Both the position numbers and the translations under genes were made by a program. From positions 1-13,318 of the forward strand of contig BTVV01000152.1 of NCBI GenBank assembly GCA_045863855.1: a stretch of DNA of 13,318 nucleotides, in the 5' to 3' direction. A model generated the notes under the pieces. The model worked only from the letters and a program-made list of their open reading frames with translations, was not told the origin of the DNA and did no database searches. This DNA is from Planctomycetota bacterium. GTDB taxonomy: Bacteria; Planctomycetota; SZUA-567; H5-PLA8. Shown piece after piece: positions 1 through 10,108 of the stretch (its first letter is position 1; every line of letters starts with the position of its first letter).

Positions 1-103
1 GTCGGGCCCTCAGGAGGGGTGCGGGCGCCCCCTCCTCTCAGTCTCTGTAAAATAAATCCCCCGACCGGGCGGGGGGGGGCCGCGCGGACCCCCCCCCCAC
101 GCC
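1..103. repeat. GC-rich palindromic region with two adjacent stem-loops (REP-like or terminator-like)
   Basis: AGGAGGGG (12-19) pairs with CCCCTCCT (29-36); GTCGGG (1-6) pairs with CCCGAC (60-65); G9 (71-79) pairs with C10 (89-98), flanked by GGCG/CGCC. Function is not determinable here. Confidence 0.55.
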
Positions 104-122
104 TGTTTAAGGCAGGAGCGAT

Positions 123-857
123 ATGAGCACACTGGACGATTTTGTACGGACAGCCGAAGACATTCTCAAAACGTACGGTACGCAGCCGGCGGTGGCTGGT
201 GCGATCCTGAAGGCGGCCAGTTCGGCGGCCCTGAAGGTCCACGGCGTTTCGGATGTGATCGTGAGCGGGTACGACCGTGTAACGCTGGTGGTGCAAGGCA
301 CGTGCGAAGATCACGCCAAAGTGGGCGGCGAGTACGTGACTGTACACCATCGGTCGCTGGACCTGCGAGTGGCCGGATTGGACACAAACGGCCAGGTACA
401 AGCGGCGAAGGAACTGGCGCGGGCGCTTGCGGAATTCGAGCGCTTAGGGGATGGCGCTTACGTCTGGATTGTACCGGATGGCTACATGGCGGCGCTTTCC
501 GAGCGCGAAAAGCGCTGGGACCGGGAAGGCGGCGGGTACTTCTCGCATGAATCGATGTGCGTTCAGAATACGGGAAAGCGTGCGACGCGCTGCGAACTCT
601 TCATCTACTTCGAACCTGCCGGGCGTGAAGTGCTGCGGCATGAGTTCGAGATTCCTGCCGAGCGGAGCATCCATCTGCGTCTGGATAAGCTGCCTGTGCG
701 GCACGGTGAGCCGTTCGTGCCAAAGGGCGTACCGGTGGGCTATAAGATTGTGAGTCACAATGCGCCGGTGGTCGTACAGGGCAGCCGCATTCTGACGAGC
801 GGGAAAGACAGCGAGTTCGCGAGTTTCGGCACCACGATGGCGTGGGCGCCTTCGTAA
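123..857 (+). CDS. Sensory rhodopsin transducer (ASRT)-family domain protein with ~110-aa N-terminal extension
   Basis: SD AGGAG at 114-118. Residues ~111-244 follow the ASRT pattern as I recall it: GAYVWIVPDGY, SHESMCVQNTG, IYF, IPAERSIHLRLDKL, PVVVQGSRI, TTMAW (cf. GRTCWAIAEGY, SHETVCILNAG, IYY, VPARRTKHVRFNDL, PIVVQHTRL, STIAY). Confidence 0.85.
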   Translation: MSTLDDFVRTAEDILKTYGTQPAVAGAILKAASSAALKVHGVSDVIVSGYDRVTLVVQGTCEDHAKVGGEYVTVHHRSLDLRVAGLDTNGQVQAAKELARALAEFERLGDGAYVWIVPDGYMAALSEREKRWDREGGGYFSHESMCVQNTGKRATRCELFIYFEPAGREVLRHEFEIPAERSIHLRLDKLPVRHGEPFVPKGVPVGYKIVSHNAPVVVQGSRILTSGKDSEFASFGTTMAWAPS

Positions 858-874
858 GCTTCCAAGGATAGCGC

Positions 875-1552
875 ATGGGACAGCGGTTGTTTGCGTTCAC
901 GGTGGAAGCGCAGCCCGCGGATGGCTGGCCGCGGCTGGAGGCGGCCCTCGCCAGCGCGCGGCGCGGTCCGCTCGTTCCGGGCGGCGTGTGCTGGGATGCG
1001 GCCGGCATCCGACATGCGATGAATGCGCTAGGCCGGGCAGGTCTTGCATCCATTTGGGTTCATACCGGCGCTCGAGTCTGCGGCGATCCGCGGGCGGTAA
1101 CCTTAGAAGCCGAAAACGGCCGCTCAGTGCTCTCCCCGGCCGAACGCTGCGGCCACTTAGACGAACTGGCTAAGGGGAACTGGGCGGAAGCGGCGCATGC
1201 GCTATTACGCAACGAGCCCTGGGATGCGTTTTTCCTTCGCGTTACGGATACGGATGCCGCGGGCGATTCCGCGCTGGCTCGAATCGTGCAAGGACTTTCG
1301 CCGGACATCGGCGTATTCGGCTTTATCGGCGTTCAGGCGTATTTGCGTACGCGCTCGTCAGATGCCAGTCCGCTGAGTGTCGCGCGAGCCGAATCGTTGT
1401 TGCCTACCGCGTTGCGCTTACTAGATTTGCCGCTCCCCGGCGCACTCGAAGCGCTGGCGATGGACTTGAACGCCGCGCCGGCCGCTGAGGGGTACTCCCG
1501 CGAAGACGAGGAGGCGATCCAAGCGCGCTTGGAGGACTTGGGCTACTTGTAG
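875..1552 (+). CDS. Short, degenerate alkaline phosphatase/nucleotide pyrophosphatase-superfamily-like protein (probably non-catalytic)
   Basis: SD AAGGA at 864-868. C-terminal YSREDEEAIQARLEDLGYL tail typical of AlkP/NPP/sulfatase-like proteins; LLPTALRLLDLPLP resembles the DxAPTxLxLLGxxxP motif; EPWDAFFLRVTDTD resembles WDxFxVxFxxxD. No SDHG motif; only 225 aa. Confidence 0.6.
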   Translation: MGQRLFAFTVEAQPADGWPRLEAALASARRGPLVPGGVCWDAAGIRHAMNALGRAGLASIWVHTGARVCGDPRAVTLEAENGRSVLSPAERCGHLDELAKGNWAEAAHALLRNEPWDAFFLRVTDTDAAGDSALARIVQGLSPDIGVFGFIGVQAYLRTRSSDASPLSVARAESLLPTALRLLDLPLPGALEALAMDLNAAPAAEGYSREDEEAIQARLEDLGYL

Positions 1553-1623: not shown

Positions 1624-2685
1624 ATGGATCCGCTGCAGCCGCGCCCAGACCTTTACAATGTTACGTTCGCCGCCGATTCGTTTAACGGTATGCCGCACCG
1701 AAGGCTGGGCCGCTCGGGGCTGCGCGTTTCGAACGTAGGGCTGGGCACCTGGAAATTCGGCTTTCCGGATAGCGGTGACGGGTCGCGTGTGGACGAGCCC
1801 ACGGCATATCAGATTCTCGACCGCGCTATCGTGCTAGGCGTCACGTTTTGGGATACGGCCAACCGCTACAACAACGCATCCGGCAACAGCGAACGCATCT
1901 TGGGCCGCTGGCTGCGCCAAAACTCAGATCAGCGCCGCAATGTGGTTTTGGCCACCAAGTGCTACGGCGGGATGGATGGGTCTTCGCCGAATCATTCGCG
2001 CCTGTCGCGGACGAACATCCTCGAATCTGTATACGCCAGCCTGGCACGGTTGCAGGTCGAGTACCTGGACGTGCTGTACTTCCACCGTTTCGATGCCGAA
2101 ACTCCGGCGGATGAAAGCTTGTCCGCGATCGACGACCTTGTGCGGCGGGACTTGGTGCGCTACTTCGCGGTCTCCAATTTCTCGGCCGATCAGCTTTCCC
2201 TATACCGGGCGCTGGAGCGTGACTTTGGCCCACGCGTGCGCGTGACGGCGGTTCAGAACCGCTTCGATATTCTGACGGACGAAGACGAAGCGCATCGCGG
2301 GGTGCTCGATTACTGCGCACGCCATGAGATTTCGTATGTGGCCTACAGCCCGCTCGCTAAAGGATTGCTGACCGAGCGCTACCTGGAGCCGTCGAAGGCC
2401 GGCCCCGGTGACCGACTGTATGACGAAGGCGAACTCGCCCGCCGCGCCGATTCGAAGACGCTCGAGATTCTGCAGCAACTAAGCGGTTGCGCGCGCGAAT
2501 GGAACCTCAAGCTTGGACAACTGGCGTTGGCCTACATGCTCACCTTGCCCGGCATGGGTCCGCTGATCCCATCTTCCTCATCGATCGAACAACTCGAAGC
2601 CAATGCGGCGGCGGGAAAAGTCGCGCTTAGCGCCGAACAAGCCTCACGCGTTCGCGAGATCCTGGCCGAGCGGTCGCCGGCATGA
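1624..2685 (+). CDS. Aldo/keto reductase
   Basis: SD GGAGG at 1614-1618. RRLGRSGLRVSNVGLGT, WDTANRY (catalytic D/Y), LATK (K), YFHRFD (H), VSNF, YSPLAKGLLT: full AKR tetrad and cofactor motifs. Confidence 0.95.
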   Translation: MDPLQPRPDLYNVTFAADSFNGMPHRRLGRSGLRVSNVGLGTWKFGFPDSGDGSRVDEPTAYQILDRAIVLGVTFWDTANRYNNASGNSERILGRWLRQNSDQRRNVVLATKCYGGMDGSSPNHSRLSRTNILESVYASLARLQVEYLDVLYFHRFDAETPADESLSAIDDLVRRDLVRYFAVSNFSADQLSLYRALERDFGPRVRVTAVQNRFDILTDEDEAHRGVLDYCARHEISYVAYSPLAKGLLTERYLEPSKAGPGDRLYDEGELARRADSKTLEILQQLSGCAREWNLKLGQLALAYMLTLPGMGPLIPSSSSIEQLEANAAAGKVALSAEQASRVREILAERSPA

Positions 2686-3689
2686 GAGTACGGGAACTGG
2701 GTCTGCTCGCGCTGATTTTTGCGCTGGCGAGCGCAAGGGCCCAGGAAGCCTCCGCCGTTGCATCGGCCCCGCTGCTGAGGTTTGAAATAAAGGACCGCCG
2801 CCTGCAACTGGCGCCTTGGAGCGCCGAACAAGCCAAGGATCCCGGGGCTGCCCTGAAAGCTTGGGTCCTTGAGCGGGAAGGGCAGGCCGAACTGGGCGAA
2901 GAACGTCTCGGAAACAAGAGTCTGGTCGTCTCGGCCAGATCCGGCCGCCACGAGTATGTACTCGAAGTAGAATCCAACATTACGGGAATTCGTTTACAGC
3001 GGAATGCGCTCGGCGAAACGGCGAGCCCCTGGTGTATTGAGGCCTCAAGCGCCCGCCAGAGCCGCATTCGGCTCTTGATCGACTTACCCGGTCAGAATCG
3101 CCGCGCGGTCTACGAAGAGGGCCGGGGACTCACGCTCGTCGCCGAAGGAAAAGAAGAACACTACGAAGCACCGGATTTCCTGACGCTGCTCATGCGAGAT
3201 ACGGCGCGCGTGCAGATTAATCTGCTGCGCCCATTCACCGATGCCGGGATCGGGCTGGCTCCGAGCGCCTATTGGCCGCCCGCCATGGCCATTGCCGTGA
3301 CCGGTTTTACTCCGCCCAACCCGGAGTTGGTTCCCCGGCTTGAAGCGCTTGTTCAAAGGCTTCAAAGCGAGAAACGTGAAGATCGCGATGCCGCCACGGC
3401 CGAGTTGATCAAGCTGTATCCGCTGGGCGTTAAGTTCCTCGACGATGCCGCGGCCAAGGCTGAAGCTCCCGAGTCGAAGCTTCGTCTGCAGCGCGTACTT
3501 TTGGCGCATCCGACGATTCAGCAACTTAAGCCTTGGGTCGCCGAACAAAAGTTACACGAAGACCGCGCGTATCTGATGGACCTGTTCGTGAATGCCCCGC
3601 TTTTTAAAGCTGCCGCGCGTGCGCGCTTGGCGGAACTGCTGGGGAAGGACTACGGGGACGAGCCTGCGGCATGGCCCAAGCCGGAATAG
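2682..3689 (+). CDS. Hypothetical exported protein with C-terminal HEAT-like helices
   Basis: ATGA overlap with the AKR stop. Signal peptide-like MRVRELGLLALIFALASARA|QE. LVQRLQSEKREDRDAATAELIKL...PESKLRLQRVL resembles a HEAT-like helical motif common in planctomycete proteins. Confidence 0.75.
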   Translation: MRVRELGLLALIFALASARAQEASAVASAPLLRFEIKDRRLQLAPWSAEQAKDPGAALKAWVLEREGQAELGEERLGNKSLVVSARSGRHEYVLEVESNITGIRLQRNALGETASPWCIEASSARQSRIRLLIDLPGQNRRAVYEEGRGLTLVAEGKEEHYEAPDFLTLLMRDTARVQINLLRPFTDAGIGLAPSAYWPPAMAIAVTGFTPPNPELVPRLEALVQRLQSEKREDRDAATAELIKLYPLGVKFLDDAAAKAEAPESKLRLQRVLLAHPTIQQLKPWVAEQKLHEDRAYLMDLFVNAPLFKAAARARLAELLGKDYGDEPAAWPKPE

Positions 3690-3695
3690 CAGGCG

Positions 3696-4277
3696 TTATT
3701 CGGCGTTCGTCCAGGTGGTGTCCGGGTTGTAGGCGGTCAGGTGCCCTGTGTCCGCCAGGCCACGGTCCTTCTGATAGATCAAACCTACCTGCCCGATCTG
3801 GAACGAATTGCGCCCGGTGCTGTCGTAGGACTGTGGAATCGCGCTGAGTCCGTATCCGCCCAAAAGGTTGGTTCCCGACAAATAGGACTTGGAGCCCCCC
3901 GATACGTTGGCTCCCTGGCCCGTTAGCACGCGAAATACGTATCCGCCCTTCGGGGTGCTGGCGGTTGGATCGCCTTCCGCCACGGCGATCGACTTGTCCA
4001 CCAATTGAATATCGCCCGACCCCGAAGTGAGTTCGAACAGGCTGGCGTCCCCGCGCAGCGCCGTCGCATACTCCAGGACGCCGTCGCCGTCCCAGTCGGA
4101 TCGATGGTAGATCTCCTGGGCTTCCGCGTACGCTTTACACGACCCGAGGCACGCCACTTCGTTGGCGGCCATCTTGGATCGGACCATATTAGGAACGGCA
4201 ATCGAGGCCACAATGGCGATGACGGCCACTACAATCATCAGTTCGATCAACGTAAAGCCGCGCTTGTGGGTCAGCAT
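3696..4277 (-). CDS. Prepilin-type N-terminal cleavage/methylation protein with DUF2950-like C-terminal domain
   Basis: KRG|FTLIELMIVVAVIAIVASIAVP class III signal peptide with E5. NE...AYAEAQ..Y...DWDGDGVLEYA and GYVFRVLTGQG...GG...Y...GGYGLSAIP..Y..TG..SF...G.IYQKD.G match the C-terminal half of DUF2950. ATG 4277 preferred over TTG 4289, which directly abuts the SD-like GGGGAG. Confidence 0.85.
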   Translation of the reverse strand: MLTHKRGFTLIELMIVVAVIAIVASIAVPNMVRSKMAANEVACLGSCKAYAEAQEIYHRSDWDGDGVLEYATALRGDASLFELTSGSGDIQLVDKSIAVAEGDPTASTPKGGYVFRVLTGQGANVSGGSKSYLSGTNLLGGYGLSAIPQSYDSTGRNSFQIGQVGLIYQKDRGLADTGHLTAYNPDTTWTNAE

Positions 4278-4298
4278 GCAAGTACCCAATCTCCCCGG

Positions 4299-5114
4299 TT
4301 AGGTGTTTAGCAATCGCTTCAGGCCTTCGGCGTAGTTTTTCAGAACCGGCTCGGCCCTTCCGCCGTCGCCGACCTTGTGAATCACTTCCACCGAGGCGTA
4401 AAGGTCCGCGCCGGCCCGTTGCAGCAGACGTAGCGGTTCGGCGTGATCGATTTCCCCTTCGCCCAACAGGACCGTTTCCATCTTCAGTCCATCGGGCGTG
4501 TAGCGGCCGTCGTGTACATGCAGGTGCTTCACGCGTGCGCCGAGTTTGACGAAGCTTTCTGTGGGCGACTCGAGAAAGCGCTGCGTGTGCATCAGATCCC
4601 ACAGCGCAGCGAAAGCCGGGTGATCCACGGCGTCCACCACTGCGGCCACCATGTTGCTGCGGCACCAAGCGTCGTGGGATTCGAGGCAGACCGTCACGCC
4701 GCGGTCGCGCGCGGCGTCGAGGACGGGGCGTACCGTATCGGCCGCGCGGCGCACGATGCCGCGCAATTCGCCTCCTCCGAATGCTCCGCCGAAAATGCGC
4801 ACGCGCCCCGCGCCGATGTCGCCGGCCAAGTCGATATACTTGCGCAGGGTTTCGGCATGCTGGTGCCGCTCGGCTTCATCGTCGCCGGCAATGCGTACGC
4901 CCGTGGCTATGCAGCAGATGGCCAGTCCTTCGTCGGCGAAGCGCTTGCGGATGGCCTTGCGCTGGTCGGCCGTGAGCGTCAACTCCACTCCGCCTTTATG
5001 CCCCCACTCGGGGCGCGGCTCGTAGCCGGCATAGCCGTACTTCTTCATCGCTGCGATGGTTTCGTCCAGCGTCCAATCGGGGCAAACGCTGCTCATTGTG
5101 GCCAAGCGGATCAT
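4299..5114 (-). CDS. Sugar phosphate isomerase/epimerase family (xylose isomerase-like TIM barrel)
   Basis: GYAGYEPR, RVRIFGG, and putative metal ligands in LESHD, WDLMH, HLHVHD, SVEV. Start set to ATG 5114 with GAGG SD upstream; the longer start overlaps the SDR gene. Confidence 0.9.
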   Translation of the reverse strand: MIRLATMSSVCPDWTLDETIAAMKKYGYAGYEPRPEWGHKGGVELTLTADQRKAIRKRFADEGLAICCIATGVRIAGDDEAERHQHAETLRKYIDLAGDIGAGRVRIFGGAFGGGELRGIVRRAADTVRPVLDAARDRGVTVCLESHDAWCRSNMVAAVVDAVDHPAFAALWDLMHTQRFLESPTESFVKLGARVKHLHVHDGRYTPDGLKMETVLLGEGEIDHAEPLRLLQRAGADLYASVEVIHKVGDGGRAEPVLKNYAEGLKRLLNT

Positions 5115-5143
5115 GATGGTTTCCTCGTGCTTTCGTCGACCGT

Positions 5144-5950
5144 TTAACCGGGCCAAGACTGCAAGCCGCCGTCCACCCGGATCACCTGCCCGCTGATGTG
5201 TGCGGAGAGCGGACTGGCGAGAAACGCAATCGCATCGGCGACCTCTTCGGGCTTTCCAAAGCGTAACAGCGGTGTGGACTCGTCCAAGAACTTGGGGTCT
5301 ACCGTTCGCGTGGCCTTGAAGCGGGCGGTCACCGTCGCTCCGGGGCTAACGGCGTTCACGCGGACGTTGTGCTCGCGGCACTGGTTGGCCAGCGTGCGCG
5401 TGTAATGCACGATGGCTGCTTTGGCCACCGCGTAGGCGCCGCTGTTGACGTGGCCGGTATGCGCGTCGCCGCTGCCGATATTGATCACCGCGCCGCGCTT
5501 GCGCTCGAGCATGCCCGGCACCACGGCGCGGCAACAGAGCATCGTTCCGAATAGGTTACGGTTGAAAATCGCCTGCACGTCTTCCCAGGCCACAAACAGA
5601 TTCTCGTTCGGGTTGGGCTTCCCGCCTTTGGCCGCAATATCGCCGCCGGCCACATTGGCCAGGATCGAGATCGGTCCCAGCGCGGCTTCTGTACGCTTGA
5701 CCAGCTCGACGATGGCTTCTGGATTCCCGATGTCGCCGGTGACGCCCACGGTTCTGACCCCAAAGCGCGTCAATCGGGCGGCCACTTCGTCCAGATTCTT
5801 CGCTTCGCCGAATTCGGCCGGGGCCTCCTGCGAGATATCGTGCACCGCGACATGCGCGCCCCACTCGGCCAGCCGGGAAACCACGGCATGGCCCAGCCCT
5901 CGGCCAGAGCCCGTCACCAGCGCCACTTCACCCTTGAGAATCTGATCCAT
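5144..5950 (-). CDS. Short-chain dehydrogenase/reductase (classical SDR, probably NAD-preferring)
   Basis: VTGSGRGLG, acidic residue after beta2 (HDIS), NVAG, NIGS, YAVAK (YxxxK), VRVNAVSPG, ISGQVIRVDGG. Confidence 0.95.
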   Translation of the reverse strand: MDQILKGEVALVTGSGRGLGHAVVSRLAEWGAHVAVHDISQEAPAEFGEAKNLDEVAARLTRFGVRTVGVTGDIGNPEAIVELVKRTEAALGPISILANVAGGDIAAKGGKPNPNENLFVAWEDVQAIFNRNLFGTMLCCRAVVPGMLERKRGAVINIGSGDAHTGHVNSGAYAVAKAAIVHYTRTLANQCREHNVRVNAVSPGATVTARFKATRTVDPKFLDESTPLLRFGKPEEVADAIAFLASPLSAHISGQVIRVDGGLQSWPG

Positions 5951-5968
5951 CGCATTCGTTCCTTAACG

Positions 5969-6994
5969 TTACGGCTTCAGCGCGATTTTGACCCGGTCAC
6001 CCGGATCGTTGGCCAGCCGGTCGAAACCGGCTTGGCCTTCTTCCAGCGGCAGGATATCGATCCAGCGCTCCAGCTTGATCTGCCCGCCCGCCACGAGGTT
6101 GAATGCTTCGAGGAAGTCGCGGTTCGTGTAGGCGTAGCTGCACTGCAAGCGGATCTCTCGGCGCACAAGATCGGTGAAATCGAACTGCGTCTCGGGGTGG
6201 TCGATGCCCAGCAATAGGGCGGTCCCGCCGCGTACCAATGCCGCGGCCGATTGCTGGCGGCAGATCGGGAATCCCACGGCCTCGAAACCCAGGTCTACAC
6301 CCCGGCCGCCGGTGAGTTTTTTGATCTCGGCGACGACATCCTGGGACTTGGGATCCAGCGTGGTCTCGGCGCCCAGTTCCTTGGCCACGGCCGCGCGCTT
6401 GGAGTTGGGCTCGATCACCGCGACGACGCGTATTCCGCGCAGGCGCGCGATGACAAGCGTCGCGATGCCCAGCGTCCCGCCGCCCCAGATCGCTGCGGTG
6501 GGAAACAGGCCGGCGTGAACCGGCGCATGCCCGACCAAGTGCACCGCATTGGCCAAGGGTTCGATCATCACGGCATCGCCTTCGCCGACGCTTGCCGGCA
6601 GCGGCAGCACCTGGCGAGCGGGAAGCTTGACGTACTCGGCAAAGGCGCCCGGAACTTGGTCCATACCGATCAGGTACCAGTCGAGACAGACGTTCTGGCG
6701 GCCGGCGCGGCACATTTCGCACTGCCCGCAAGCCACCAGCGGATTGACCGCCACCCGCTGGCCCTTGAGCGCCGGGTCAACGCCCGATCCGCATACGGCC
6801 ACATGGCCGTGGGTCTCGTGCCCCATCACCAGTCCGGGCTGGCGGCGCGGACTGCGGCCCACGAAGCCGTGCATGTCGGAGCCGCAGATGCCCGTCGCGG
6901 CGACCTTGACGAGGACTTCGCCCGCCCCCGCTTGCGGTTGATCCATCCCGCGCAGTTCGACTTTGCGCGTCGCGGCCAAATAAAGCGCTCTCAT
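5969..6994 (-). CDS. Zinc-dependent medium-chain (sugar/polyol) dehydrogenase
   Basis: GICGSDMH, GHE, structural Zn CGQCEMC...C, IEPLA, GGGTLG Rossmann motif. AAGGAG SD at 7001-7006 (minus strand) supports ATG 6994. Confidence 0.95.
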   Translation of the reverse strand: MRALYLAATRKVELRGMDQPQAGAGEVLVKVAATGICGSDMHGFVGRSPRRQPGLVMGHETHGHVAVCGSGVDPALKGQRVAVNPLVACGQCEMCRAGRQNVCLDWYLIGMDQVPGAFAEYVKLPARQVLPLPASVGEGDAVMIEPLANAVHLVGHAPVHAGLFPTAAIWGGGTLGIATLVIARLRGIRVVAVIEPNSKRAAVAKELGAETTLDPKSQDVVAEIKKLTGGRGVDLGFEAVGFPICRQQSAAALVRGGTALLLGIDHPETQFDFTDLVRREIRLQCSYAYTNRDFLEAFNLVAGGQIKLERWIDILPLEEGQAGFDRLANDPGDRVKIALKP

Positions 6995-7016
6995 GTCCGT
7001 CTCCTTGAAAGACAAG

Positions 7017-7787
7017 CTATTGTGCCGTCCAGCCGCCGTCGACGAAGAGCGCGCTCCCGGTTACGAAGCTCGAAGCGTCGCTGGCCAAAAACAGCGCCGC
7101 GCCGGCCAGTTCGTGCAGATCGCCCCAGCGCCCCATCGGAATCTTGGCCACGAAGGCCTGATATTTGGCCGGATCGTTGAGCAGTGGAAGATTCATCTCG
7201 GTCGCGAACGGACCCGGGCAGATCGCGTTGGCCGTTACGCCCTGGGCGGCCCATTCAAGCGCCATGACTTTGGTCAGATTGAGTACCCCGGCTTTGGCCG
7301 AGGCGTACGGCGCGCGTCCCGCAATCGCGATGACCGAGAGAATGGAGCCCAAGTTGATCACGCGGCCCCAACGGCGTTCGCACATGCCTGGAGCAAGCGC
7401 ACGCGCCATCAGCCAAGGCGCCTTCAGGTTGACCGCCAATACCGCATCGAAATCTTCTTCCTTCAATTCGGCAATGCTGCCGCGGATGTTAATGCCGGCG
7501 TTGTTGACCAGAATATCGATGGGGCCGAGGCGCTCCGCCGCCGAAGCGGCGATGCGCTCCACATCGGCGGCCTGGGTCACGTCGCCGGCCAAAGCCAGCG
7601 CTTTACGGCCAGTGCTGGAGGCAATCACTTTTGCGGCGGATTCGACCTGATCGGCGTTGCGCGCGACCAGTGCCACATCCGCGCCGGCCTGCGCCAAGGC
7701 GGTGGCGATCGTTTCGCCCAGGCCCTTGCTGCCGCCGGTGATCAGCGCACGCCGGCCATCGAGCTTGAATCTGTCCAGCACATTCAT
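7017..7787 (-). CDS. Short-chain dehydrogenase/reductase, gluconate 5-dehydrogenase/KduD-like (probably NADP-preferring)
   Basis: [21 protein letters not shown] (basic, NADP-type), [48 protein letters not shown] 7787 avoids overlap with the upstream gene. Confidence 0.93.
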
Positions 7788-7792
7788 CGAGT

Positions 7793-8803
7793 TCACGGAG
7801 CGCTCGATCCCTTTGGAGCCATCAATCCGCGCGAACGCGCCCACTCGGCGCTGGCGCGAAGCTGCTCAAGTTCGAAGGCGACCAAGTCCGCCGATCCGGC
7901 GCCCAGCTCCCACGGAGTGCGCCATTCCTCATGCTCGGCAAGTAAACCTTTGCGCGCGGCGGCCAATCCCGCGGCCAGTGCTTCGGCCGGGCGCGGCGAA
8001 TAACCGCTCCACCAGGACGGATTCAGCACCCGTACATGCCGGGCCTCCAATGCGCCGGGTTCCAGAGCCGCAGGCAATTCGGCGTGGTGAACTTTGAGTT
8101 CCTTAAGCAATGCCTCGAAGGGTATCGCTCCATGCCCAGTCGCGCAACGCAGCAGTCGGTAGCCTTCAGCGGTCCATTGGACCTTGTAGTCTTTTAAATG
8201 TACATGTCTCACGCGTGGAGCGACGGCGCGGACAAAGGCGATGGGATCTTCGCCGACAGCCAGCGCGTTTCCGGTGTCGAGGCAGATTCCGACATGCGGG
8301 CCGTACGGCGCGCAGAGTCCCAGCAGCTCGACGCTCGTGAAATCCTGGTGATTCTCAATGGCTAAGGCGATGCCTGCATCCGCGGCGCGTGGCGCACTTC
8401 CGGCCAGTGCCAGCACGACGCCTTCGAAAACTTCGCGCCAAGGCGGTTTGTGGAAGGCCCGCCCGCCAGCCAGAACAGAAGTCGCCGAAACGCGGAGGAT
8501 GCGCGCGCCCAGCCGTGCCGCCAGTTTCAAACTGGCCTGAATATCGTTCAAGCGTGCCGTCTGGCTGGCCACGGGTTGCGCATCCATTTGAGCGAGGCGC
8601 TCCAGGAGGCTGTTCCAGCCGGTATCGTCGAGGTTCTCGAGCAGCGGCATCGGGATTTCTACGACGCGCGCGCCGAGTTCGGCGGCCAAGTCGAGATACC
8701 TTGAGAGACCCCAAGGATCGGGGTTGGCGCGCGGCGTACCTCCGCCCGGCCAGCCTAAGACGGTGTACGAGACCCCGTACGGATTGATGCCCACGCGGAG
8801 CAT
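7793..8803 (-). CDS. Sugar phosphate isomerase/epimerase family (xylose isomerase-like TIM barrel)
   Basis: [43 protein letters not shown] metal-binding pattern, plus a C-terminal extension. Confidence 0.9.
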
Positions 8804-8814
8804 AAGGGATGATC

Positions 8815-10074
8815 TCAGCGGGCTTCGCGCAACGCTTTGAGCGCCGCTTCGGCCCGATCTCGGTAGGGCGTTTCCAGGCAGCGTTCGAAATCCTGCGCGG
8901 CCAGATGCGCGCTGCCCTGAGCGGCGCGCACTTCGCCGCGCAAATAATAGGCGGCGTGGTACTCGGGAAATAAATTCACGGCCGCTTCCAGCGCGGACAG
9001 TGCGGAATCGGCTTGCCCTAACTTATGCGCGGAAAGTGCTTTCATGTAATACAGCCGTGCGTATTGCTCGTCCTTTTGGAGCGCGCGGTCCAGGAGCGCC
9101 AGCGCGGCGCCGTGGTCTCCGGCTTTTTGTTTGGCCATGGCTTCACGGTACGCCGTGTCGTCGACGGTTTCGGACAATTGGTTGACAAAGGCCAGATAGC
9201 CCGTTTCGAGGGGCGCCCATTCGTCTTCCAGGATAACCTTCTGCGTCTGCGCCACGTTCTCCGCTTCGCTGGCTTGGGGGCCTAATGCGCGGTATAGCCG
9301 AGGCAGCACCTTGGCGTCACGCATCTGTGAATCTTCCAGCAAATAGCGCACGAAGCCCCACGCATGAAGGTAGTGTGTACGCGCGTCTTCGATCCAGGCC
9401 GGTCCGCGAAAGCCCAGCAGTTCCTTCAATTTCGTGTTCGGATTCGGTCCGCCTCCCAGCACATGCTTGCGGAAGTCGCGCAGATGTTCGCGCGCCGGTC
9501 CTAGCTTGAGCTTGATTCCGTCGGTCATATCGGCGTCTTCTACGCATTCTCCGAGTCCCGCGTCCAGCCAAGGCGGAGGTTCGGGGATCCACGAGCGCAG
9601 AAGCGCACTGGCCGCGACGTGGCGCAAGCGCGACTGCATCGGGACAGGTGGCAATGTGTAAGCCGCCAACACGCGCCGTTCGGGAAAGCTGCTGGGTACG
9701 TACGTGTAACTGCCCATCCAAGGCGCTTTGCGCGCGGTCAGAAATTTTGCGCAGTCGGAGCGCTTATCGAATAGCGCCACGTACAGCCGTTCGGGCACCG
9801 GCGCGTCGTTAGGAAGCTGGAGCAAACCAAATAGTTGAGGAATCGACTTGGAAAGTCCGGGTAGCGCACTGAGCACCACCGACTCCGGCGCATCGGAAAC
9901 GATCGAGACAAAGGGAGCTTCGTGAATCTTGAACGTCCCGCCGACGAGTTGCTGGAGTTCGGCTTGGAGCGTCTCCGCCGGCTTCCCGTCCGCGCCCCAA
10001 GCCGAGTACGCGGTGGCTCCGCATAGGATCCAGCCAACCAGCGAGAACTTGAAGCGTAAGATGTGCCCGACCAT
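8815..10074 (-). CDS. Exported DUF1570-like (zincin-fold) domain plus C-terminal TPR protein; zinc motif degenerate
   Basis: Signal peptide-like N-terminus (…ATAYSAWG|ADG). RLYVALFD, LRHVAASALL, PPWLDAGLGE, YLHAWGFVRYLL parallel the DUF1570/peptidase MA layout (HExxH, PxWxxEGxAE, YxxSWxxVxYL). About 3 TPR-like repeats follow (AALALLDRALQ…, ALSALEAAVNLFPEY…, AAQDFERCL). Confidence 0.75.
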   Translation of the reverse strand: MVGHILRFKFSLVGWILCGATAYSAWGADGKPAETLQAELQQLVGGTFKIHEAPFVSIVSDAPESVVLSALPGLSKSIPQLFGLLQLPNDAPVPERLYVALFDKRSDCAKFLTARKAPWMGSYTYVPSSFPERRVLAAYTLPPVPMQSRLRHVAASALLRSWIPEPPPWLDAGLGECVEDADMTDGIKLKLGPAREHLRDFRKHVLGGGPNPNTKLKELLGFRGPAWIEDARTHYLHAWGFVRYLLEDSQMRDAKVLPRLYRALGPQASEAENVAQTQKVILEDEWAPLETGYLAFVNQLSETVDDTAYREAMAKQKAGDHGAALALLDRALQKDEQYARLYYMKALSAHKLGQADSALSALEAAVNLFPEYHAAYYLRGEVRAAQGSAHLAAQDFERCLETPYRDRAEAALKALREAR

Positions 10075-10080
10075 GGCAGC

Positions 10081-10108
10081 ATCGTAAGCGCTCGCGCCCA
10101 CTTGCCAA
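10081..10108 (-). promoter_or_regulatory. Candidate sigma70-type promoter for the - strand operon (possibly leaderless)
   Basis: Minus strand TTGGCA (10108-10103) - 16 nt - TACGAT (10086-10081) - 6 nt - ATG 10074; no SD before this ATG. Confidence 0.35.

Follow-up and report, generated by a model that had tools for sequence, protein, structure and literature searches.

A conserved two-domain ASRT-family protein with an orphan N-terminal domain in Planctomycetota and Poribacteria

Introduction

ASRT-family proteins are widespread and their structures have been available since 2003 and 2007, but their function is unproven outside Anabaena. Which role could such a protein have in a bacterium with no rhodopsin in view, and why would it carry a second domain? 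These questions are raised by a 244-amino acid (aa) open reading frame (ORF) close to one end of contig BTVV01000152.1 from a Planctomycetota bacterium (assembly GCA_045863855.1). The window, i.e. the whole stretch of DNA analyzed here, is this entire 13,318-nucleotide (nt) contig (C152) of a 6.9-Mb, 94%-complete assembly. A sequence-only reading of the window had described the encoded protein (P0001) as an ASRT domain fused to an unexplained N-terminal domain (N-domain). Here we report that P0001 belongs to a two-domain subfamily that is common, tightly conserved, and unannotated apart from a misleading ASRT/rhodopsin name, and we weigh what its conserved pocket and its gene neighborhood suggest about its role.

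Results

P0001 is encoded by a real and conserved gene

A scan of one genome per species revealed at least 123 stretches encoding relatives of P0001, mostly in Candidatus Poribacteria and also in some Planctomycetota. Our locus comparisons use the best 80 of these 123 stretches, which originate from Candidatus Poribacteria (72), Planctomycetota (5), and entries named "uncultured bacterium" (3). Because full-length relatives are present in 80 of the 80 loci fetched, the ORF is conserved well beyond chance, and we conclude that the gene is genuine and conserved. When 5.8 billion proteins were queried in a word-indexed search (E ≤ 0.001), 455 homologous protein clusters were returned and, among the 120 listed, 117 are 230–259 aa in size and mostly cover 83–100% of P0001. 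The nearest named relative of the window is locus L002, from a metagenome-assembled genome of a Planctomycetota of the same genus, with 91% protein identity. Positions 101–140, including the AGGAG and the start codon, are almost unchanged in L002. Inspection of the sequence revealed no apparent signal peptide at the N terminus of P0001. The features of the window that matter for this analysis are listed in Table 1.

The first ∼100 nt of the contig look error-rich and the gene begins at position 123, so that the N-terminal part could in principle be an artefact, originating from a mis-called start or from a chimeric contig end. Several lines of evidence make this exceedingly improbable. The same start, AGGAG, and N-domain are found in L002, which lies within a 995-kb contig, and the N-domain is kept in full-length relatives on closed Poribacteria chromosomes. 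The first internal Met of P0001 is residue 122, and after the start codon the frame has no further ATG until the ASRT domain is reached. In addition, the N-domain folded alone by AlphaFold2 has a predicted local distance difference test score (pLDDT) of 92.7 and a predicted template modeling score (pTM) of 0.85. Homologues lacking the N-terminal part, which the sequence-only reading had put forward as the pattern to expect from a wrong start or a chimera, are not what the cluster sizes display. We therefore rejected both artefacts on the basis of L002, the closed Poribacteria chromosomes, and the lengths of the homologues.

Table 1. Coordinates of the features discussed, in positions of the window
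Feature	Positions	Strand	Basis or remark
Error-rich contig end, a G/C-skewed version of the intergenic region and of the upstream sulfatase-family gene's 3' end	1..100		Co-linear with L002
Shine-Dalgarno-like AGGAG	114..118	+	4 nt 5' of the ATG
Gene for the two-domain ASRT-family protein (P0001, 244 aa)	123..857	+	ORF, Pfam, homologues
Orphan α/β N-domain, residues 1-108	123..446	+	Helix, helix, four strands, helix
ASRT (ASRAH family 1) β-sandwich domain, residues 111-241	453..845	+	Pfam PF07100, 1NC7/2II7
Subfamily-specific long loop between strands 1 and 2, residues 126-140	498..542	+	Gaps relative to TM1070 and ASRT
Pocket signature S141-H142-E143-S144-M145-C146-V147-Q148-N149	543..569	+	SHEshChhN of de Souza et al. 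2009
g2 (225 aa), predicted to be an inactive protein with a degenerate alkaline-phosphatase-superfamily fold	875..1552	+	17-nt gap after the ASRT gene
Aldo/keto reductase	1624..2685	+	Pfam E 1.6e-69

The ASRT domain harbors an invariant pocket signature

The Pfam ASRT model (PF07100) matches residues 111–241 of P0001 with an E value of 3e-18 and a score of 66.3 bits (gathering cut-off 25), over profile positions 2–118 of 119. This agrees with the placement of the ASRT part from nt ∼453 onward in the sequence-only reading. Among proteins of known structure in the PDB, sequence matches were found with TM1070 from Thermotoga maritima (1NC7, E 4e-11) and Anabaena ASRT (2II7/2IIA, E ∼4e-6). The full-length AlphaFold2 model has a mean pLDDT of 80.8, with values of 76–91 in the ASRT domain apart from the loop and tail. 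When this model was used to query Foldseek, TM1070 (1NC7) was found with an E value of 3e-9, 33–35% identity, and a TM score by target of 0.78, and Anabaena ASRT (2II7) with an E value of 2e-6 and a TM score by target of 0.69–0.81. These two proteins were the sole matches, none of which involved the N-domain, and the eight-stranded β-sandwich fold of 1NC7/2II7 is present in the P0001 model. P0001 is thus an ASRT-like family member by every sequence and fold criterion tested, in which the stand-alone architecture is broken. Indeed, whereas stand-alone members are single domains of ∼125 aa, P0001 has 244 aa with a conserved extra N-domain.

The family was defined by de Souza, Iyer, and Aravind in 2009 (PMC2739507) on the basis of a Trp in strand 1, an Asn in strand 2, and a SHEshChhN strand, in a study that lists stand-alone versions only. 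In TM1070, the His and Cys of this SHEshChhN strand contact a bound diol (PMC2739507). A further characteristic of the family is a homotetramer in which the dimer interface walls the pocket. We found that W115 (which begins strand 1), H142, E143, C146, and N149 (which ends strand 2) do not vary among the 50 sequences aligned, and that an Ala replaces the Ser at position 141 in 1 of the 50. As the family-defining W, N, and SHEshChhN residues are invariant here, a small-molecule pocket is the best-supported inference for this domain. Overall, 42 positions are invariant in this 50-member alignment, which spans two phyla, and nearly all of them are within the 134 residues of the ASRT domain. The median identity to P0001 is 61% for the ASRT domain vs 20% for the N-domain. 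The subfamily also has a specific C-terminal motif, QGSRILTSG..S.FASFGT.MAW.

The extra loop picked out by the sequence-only reading, SEREKRWDREGGGYF, corresponds to residues 126–140 and is borne out by the alignments, where gaps of 4+5 positions relative to TM1070 (1NC7) and of 6 positions relative to Anabaena ASRT are found. Within this loop, E129, W132, G136, Y139, and F140 are invariant in the 50 sequences, and a short helix is predicted for residues 127–134, albeit with low confidence (pLDDT 52–65). Since loop length varies within the family, with a PDG-to-SHE spacing of 11–20 residues and P0001 the longest among the sequences compared, this extended loop is, as judged from these alignments, real but not unique to P0001.

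Of the characterized structures, TM1070 is the best match both in sequence and in fold. It shares the strand-1 Trp and the SHExxCxxN pocket strand, and its gene adjoins metabolic genes in a rhodopsin-less host, which resembles the setting of P0001, where no rhodopsin was found. However, TM1070 is a single ∼120-aa domain forming a tetramer, whereas P0001 adds a 108-residue N-domain, a loop that is 9 residues longer, and the C-terminal motif. Anabaena ASRT (2II7, 2II8, 2II9, 2IIA) belongs to the same Pfam family and has the same fold, but here there are two domains, no rhodopsin was found, the DNA-contact residues are not kept, and the family is acidic. ASRT-like sandwiches can be combined with other domains, as seen in ASRAH families 2 and 3, i.e. 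tetrads fused to an amidase in Chloroflexi and lipoprotein dyads in actinobacteria (PMC2739507). These proteins are secreted, contain 2 or 4 copies of the sandwich, and are devoid of the His/Cys pocket pair (PMC2739507). In contrast, P0001 is predicted to be cytoplasmic, its single sandwich bears the family-1 pocket, and the domain fused to it is neither an amidase nor another known domain. Because the known multi-domain ASRAH proteins are secreted and without the His/Cys pair, P0001 represents a different kind of fusion.

The N-domain is an orphan found only in fusion with this ASRT clade

When residues 1–110 were searched separately, Pfam (E ≤ 10, best E 0.12) and NCBIfam (E ≤ 1) returned chance-level rows only, and the N-domain thus remains as unexplained as the sequence-only reading had it. 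Foldseek with the N-domain against the PDB gave zero matches at E ≤ 0.001 (best E 0.04). In a VIA-align comparison with 48,161 representative chains, the best Z score was 5.4, for the OxsB N-terminal domain, followed by the small domain of a class-III aminotransferase (4.8), a YbjN-family protein (4.2), and type III secretion chaperones (3.1–4.0). Models lacking a real match typically reach a best Z of 7–8, and since all scores are below this background, none of these matches counts as a reliable relative. The YbjN/AmyR and type III chaperone folds work as protein-docking dimers. They are small α/β sandwiches (e.g. 5FR7, 3TU3, and 4JMF) that align over 76–90 of the 108 N-domain residues, with Z scores of 3.1–4.2 that are under background and no sequence signal, which makes them a lead only and not a family assignment.

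A profile built from 34 N-domain sequences taken from the loci, run against 1.84 billion representative proteins, produced 20 matches at E ≤ 0.001. These are two-domain members, truncated or frameshifted fragments thereof, and one low-complexity repeat protein of 809 aa (P0130), which we disregarded as an N-domain relative. A query of the ESM Atlas with residues 1–108 gave no usable match and no stored model. At the sensitivity of the tools used, the N-domain therefore occurs only fused to this ASRT clade. In the alignment of the 34 sequences, Y18 and G59 are invariant and L37, G41, V57, G69, and L102 are nearly so, and there are no catalytic-looking invariant residues. The N-domain evolves three times faster than the sandwich. 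This fast evolution, together with the lack of catalytic-looking invariants, suggests a docking or oligomerization role for the N-domain.

The sequence-only reading saw no classical transcription regulator in the window and, in agreement, we found no helix-turn-helix regulator among its 13 large ORFs, a vacancy that P0001 might fill as a DNA-binding regulator similar to Anabaena ASRT. The latter is reported to bind and loop promoter DNA and to raise reporter expression (PMC8660804). However, R109, Q110, and N113, described there as DNA contacts, align to K228, D229, and F232 in P0001, and the family majority at these positions is E (32/50), N (33/50), and F (50/50). Moreover, the family is acidic, with median isoelectric points of 4.8 (entire protein) and 4.9 (ASRT domain), and no DNA-binding fold matched the N-domain above background. 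A DNA-binding role for P0001 thus seems very unlikely.

The two-domain subfamily is widespread and points to a single fusion event

Database names of the homologues are "sensory rhodopsin transducer" or "hypothetical protein". The sequence-only reading had taken a common and already annotated fusion as counting against it, and half of this applies: the fusion is common, with its 455 clusters, but it is annotated by the ASRT name only and there is no Pfam or NCBIfam model for the N-domain. Adding such a model to Pfam-type collections would put right hundreds of "rhodopsin transducer" annotations in organisms for which no link to a rhodopsin is known. In a literature search that did not extend to subscription journals, we found no description of a two-domain ASRT or of an ASRT in Poribacteria. 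The protein is nearly universal, and unannotated, in Poribacteria, a group of uncultured sponge symbionts.

In a sample of 301 Planctomycetota genomes, 18 have a match to PF07100. The two-domain type was found in 3 of the 301, with scores of 62–65 bits and a frame of ∼250 aa, all within the family to which the genome of the window belongs. The remaining matches are stand-alone genes encoding 121–150 aa, with scores of 99–191 bits (vs 66 bits for P0001), or giant repeat proteins. For a maximum-likelihood tree of ASRT domains, we used 17 two-domain proteins, chosen from 121, and 11 stand-alone proteins, two of which were clipped by a few N-terminal residues. All two-domain sequences are on one side of a long branch of 1.69 changes per site with 100/99 support, and the branches within this clade are short. 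This topology indicates that the fusion took place once and that strong constraint followed.

A search for shorter homologues, aimed at split or stand-alone forms, gave five matches. Three are stand-alone ASRTs with 38–39% identity, and two are short, fragment-like proteins with 72–75% identity over 28–43% of the query. Neither this search nor the N-domain profile search identified a free-standing N-domain gene.

In Planctomycetota the ASRT gene is part of a conserved gene order

Comparison of the loci shows that the order of genes on the same strand is conserved in Planctomycetota, with a GFO/IDH/MocA oxidoreductase gene followed by a Thr-type sulfatase-family hydrolase gene, the ASRT gene, and g2. 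The sulfatase-family gene lies directly upstream, with the oxidoreductase gene before it, in all four Planctomycetota loci for which upstream sequence is available, although in L004 a PIN gene is inserted between the two. In the genome of the window, another contig (C211) ends with a sulfatase-family gene and a GFO/IDH/MocA gene displaying 98 and 91% identity, respectively, to those in L002. In six of six upstream hydrolases, the motif is IPT.P, with a Thr at the site of the formylglycine Cys/Ser and no Arg two positions after the Pro.

Such Thr-type, cytoplasmic-looking hydrolases (IPT.P and not C.P.R) were seen at L002:6573-7937, L003:6557-7897, L004:6534-8000, L005:6470-7990, L002:4145-5506, L003:4009-5418, and C211:14-1372, and they stand in tandem with GFO/IDH/MocA oxidoreductases. 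The genome of the window has a large complement of sulfatase-family genes, since a single query gave 70 matching stretches in the 6.9 Mb, some of which are two pieces of one gene.

Immediately downstream of the ASRT gene, g2 is present in five of five Planctomycetota loci. Even with the E value relaxed to ≤ 10, Pfam gave no match for it, and only three more relatives were found among the 5.8 billion proteins. The Atlas model of g2 resembles Phosphodiest/sulfatase/metalloenzyme clusters with a TM score by query of up to 0.73, which is a lead only. An alignment of seven g2 sequences shows that NEPWD, PDIAV, PT.L, and a C-terminal RLEDLGYL are kept, and no conserved metal-ligand His or Asp was found in these seven. 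We take g2 to be a degenerate and probably inactive member of the alkaline-phosphatase fold, possibly a pseudoenzyme. A complex prediction for P0001 with g2 scored 0.00, in a run without controls that counts neither for nor against binding.

Further downstream, conservation decreases. The aldo/keto reductase gene after g2 is retained at 97% identity in L002 and at 74% in L003, whereas it does not follow g2 in L004 or L005. In the window, the neighbors of the ASRT gene encode this aldo/keto reductase, two xylose-isomerase-like TIM barrels, two SDR proteins, a zinc-dependent alcohol dehydrogenase, and a GFO/IDH/MocA oxidoreductase. The sequence-only reading had proposed that P0001 is a sugar sensor or scaffold for the adjacent redox pathway. 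Binding of a sugar-like ligand would still be the most reasonable interpretation, but the opposite-strand redox cluster (4299–8803) is shared with L002 only and is therefore not the partner that is conserved with the ASRT gene.

The family name by itself might suggest that P0001 is a rhodopsin transducer whose rhodopsin gene falls in a part of the genome that was not assembled, since a 94%-complete genome could miss a gene. We give this almost no credence. As the sequence-only reading had noted, no rhodopsin is encoded by the 13 large ORFs of the window, and none was found among the Pfam-scanned neighboring ORFs in 12 related loci. The Bac_rhodopsin model (PF01036) has no match in the window or the 6.9-Mb assembly, although this is weak evidence because 14 control genomes gave none either. 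In addition, PMC2739507 reports linkage to a rhodopsin for Nostoc/Anabaena only.

Poribacteria loci have a different recurrent neighbor

In Poribacteria, the only recurrent neighbor of the ASRT gene is a conserved gene encoding a protein of ∼110 aa, which lies directly upstream in the same orientation in 57 of 75 loci. It is placed ∼320–430 nt upstream of the ASRT gene in L009–L081 (e.g. L016:7607-7951). The ∼110-aa protein has no Pfam match and displays the motifs WIPT.EQL, KLPYP, GWEY.TYFREWAADYGTYID, and GERWMV. We considered whether it is a relative of g2 and dropped this idea, as we found no BLAST link and the consensus sequences look unrelated, in a comparison limited to BLAST and consensus. 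The other neighbors vary and include a YibE/F membrane protein, DUF433/DUF5615 pairs, PhyH, and an NAD-dependent sugar dehydratase. In several Poribacteria loci (e.g. L022:8822-9927), the ASRT gene is followed by small, toxin-antitoxin-like genes in a tandem DUF433/DUF5615/DUF433 arrangement.

A putative role in binding a sugar-like molecule

We favor, with middling confidence, a role for P0001 as a cytoplasmic binder of a small, sugar-like molecule that works with the enzymes of its operon. The pocket of the β-sandwich would bind the molecule, and P0001 would act through protein contacts rather than through a rhodopsin. H142 and C146 would line the pocket for a sugar, a sugar ester, or its hydrolysis/oxidation product, the N-domain might be a lineage-specific docking or oligomerization module, and P0001 could thereby tune or escort the neighboring enzymes. 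This would resemble the proposal of de Souza, Iyer, and Aravind, who predicted that the stand-alone ASRT-like proteins are intracellular sugar sensors acting on neighboring enzymes via protein contacts (PMC2739507). The contrasting conservation of the two domains fits this picture of a conserved binding core with an adaptable contact module.

Several observations weigh against such a role. The ligand, the oligomeric state, and the partner contacts of P0001 are all putative, and the placement of the two domains relative to each other is of low confidence (pTM 0.58). The Thr-type hydrolases leave the class of ester, sulfate vs phosphate, unfixed. Furthermore, the neighbors seen in Planctomycetota do not recur in the Poribacteria loci, which hold most members, and because the neighbors differ there is no single operon context that covers the whole family. 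Finally, 42 invariant residues exceed what a plain binder usually needs and suit an enzyme equally well.

P0001 could itself be an enzyme, with His142, Cys146, and Glu143 in the ASRT pocket catalyzing a simple conversion of a sugar, e.g. the interconversion of anomers or an epimerization, which would feed the GFO/IDH/MocA oxidoreductase once the hydrolase has removed the ester. The invariant positions shared by sequences from two phyla, the short branches within the clade, the His/Cys/Glu triad in the pocket, and the location of the gene among enzyme genes on one strand are all consistent with catalysis. However, PMC2739507 and passages of PMC8660804 report no activity for any ASRT-family protein, and catalysis by the pocket leaves the added N-domain unexplained. 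We see an enzymatic role as possible but unlikely. A bolder proposal, which is doubtful, is that Planctomycetota and sponge-symbiotic Poribacteria have in common an undescribed cytoplasmic pathway, with the two-domain ASRT as its hallmark subunit. The sandwich would then be catalytic or channel an esterified sugar or cyclitol as substrate, and the N-domain would be a new fold docking onto atypical or degenerate proteins of the alkaline-phosphatase superfamily. If true, this would be the first biochemical role to be defined for the ASRT family.

For studies of ASRT function, the subfamily offers a strongly conserved pocket that is suited to mutagenesis and ligand screens. The extra domain, which has no known relatives, should mark a contact surface, and the fixed Planctomycetota operon, with its oxidoreductase and Thr-type hydrolase, narrows the candidate ligands.

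The contig end and other features of the window

Over its first ∼100 nt, the window is co-linear with both L002 and the C211 terminus but has many changes to G or C, including runs of G9 and C10, as would be expected of an error-rich contig end. The last bases of C211 overlap the first ∼70 nt of the window (L093:1-120), and C211 (reverse strand) and C152 are probably adjacent in the genome. The sulfatase-family gene at C211:14-1372 is intact, with 98% identity to L002 over residues 2–454. We had considered nt 3–50 of the window as the true end of the hydrolase and dropped this possibility, since C211 carries the intact end.

Two pairs of called ORFs overlap, by 52 nt (7793–7844) between an SDR gene (7017–7844) and a TIM-barrel gene (7793–8803) on the same strand, and by 39 nt (10063–10101) between a TPR gene (8815–10101) and the GTG start of the divergent GFO gene at 10063. 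In both cases, the upstream starts are probably over-called. Finally, positions 2682–3689 (+) encode a 335-aa protein with a signal-peptide-like N terminus that belongs to no family and is kept in L002 and partly in L003, and the adjoining gene (3696–4289, −) encodes a DUF2950 protein with a prepilin-type N-methylation motif.

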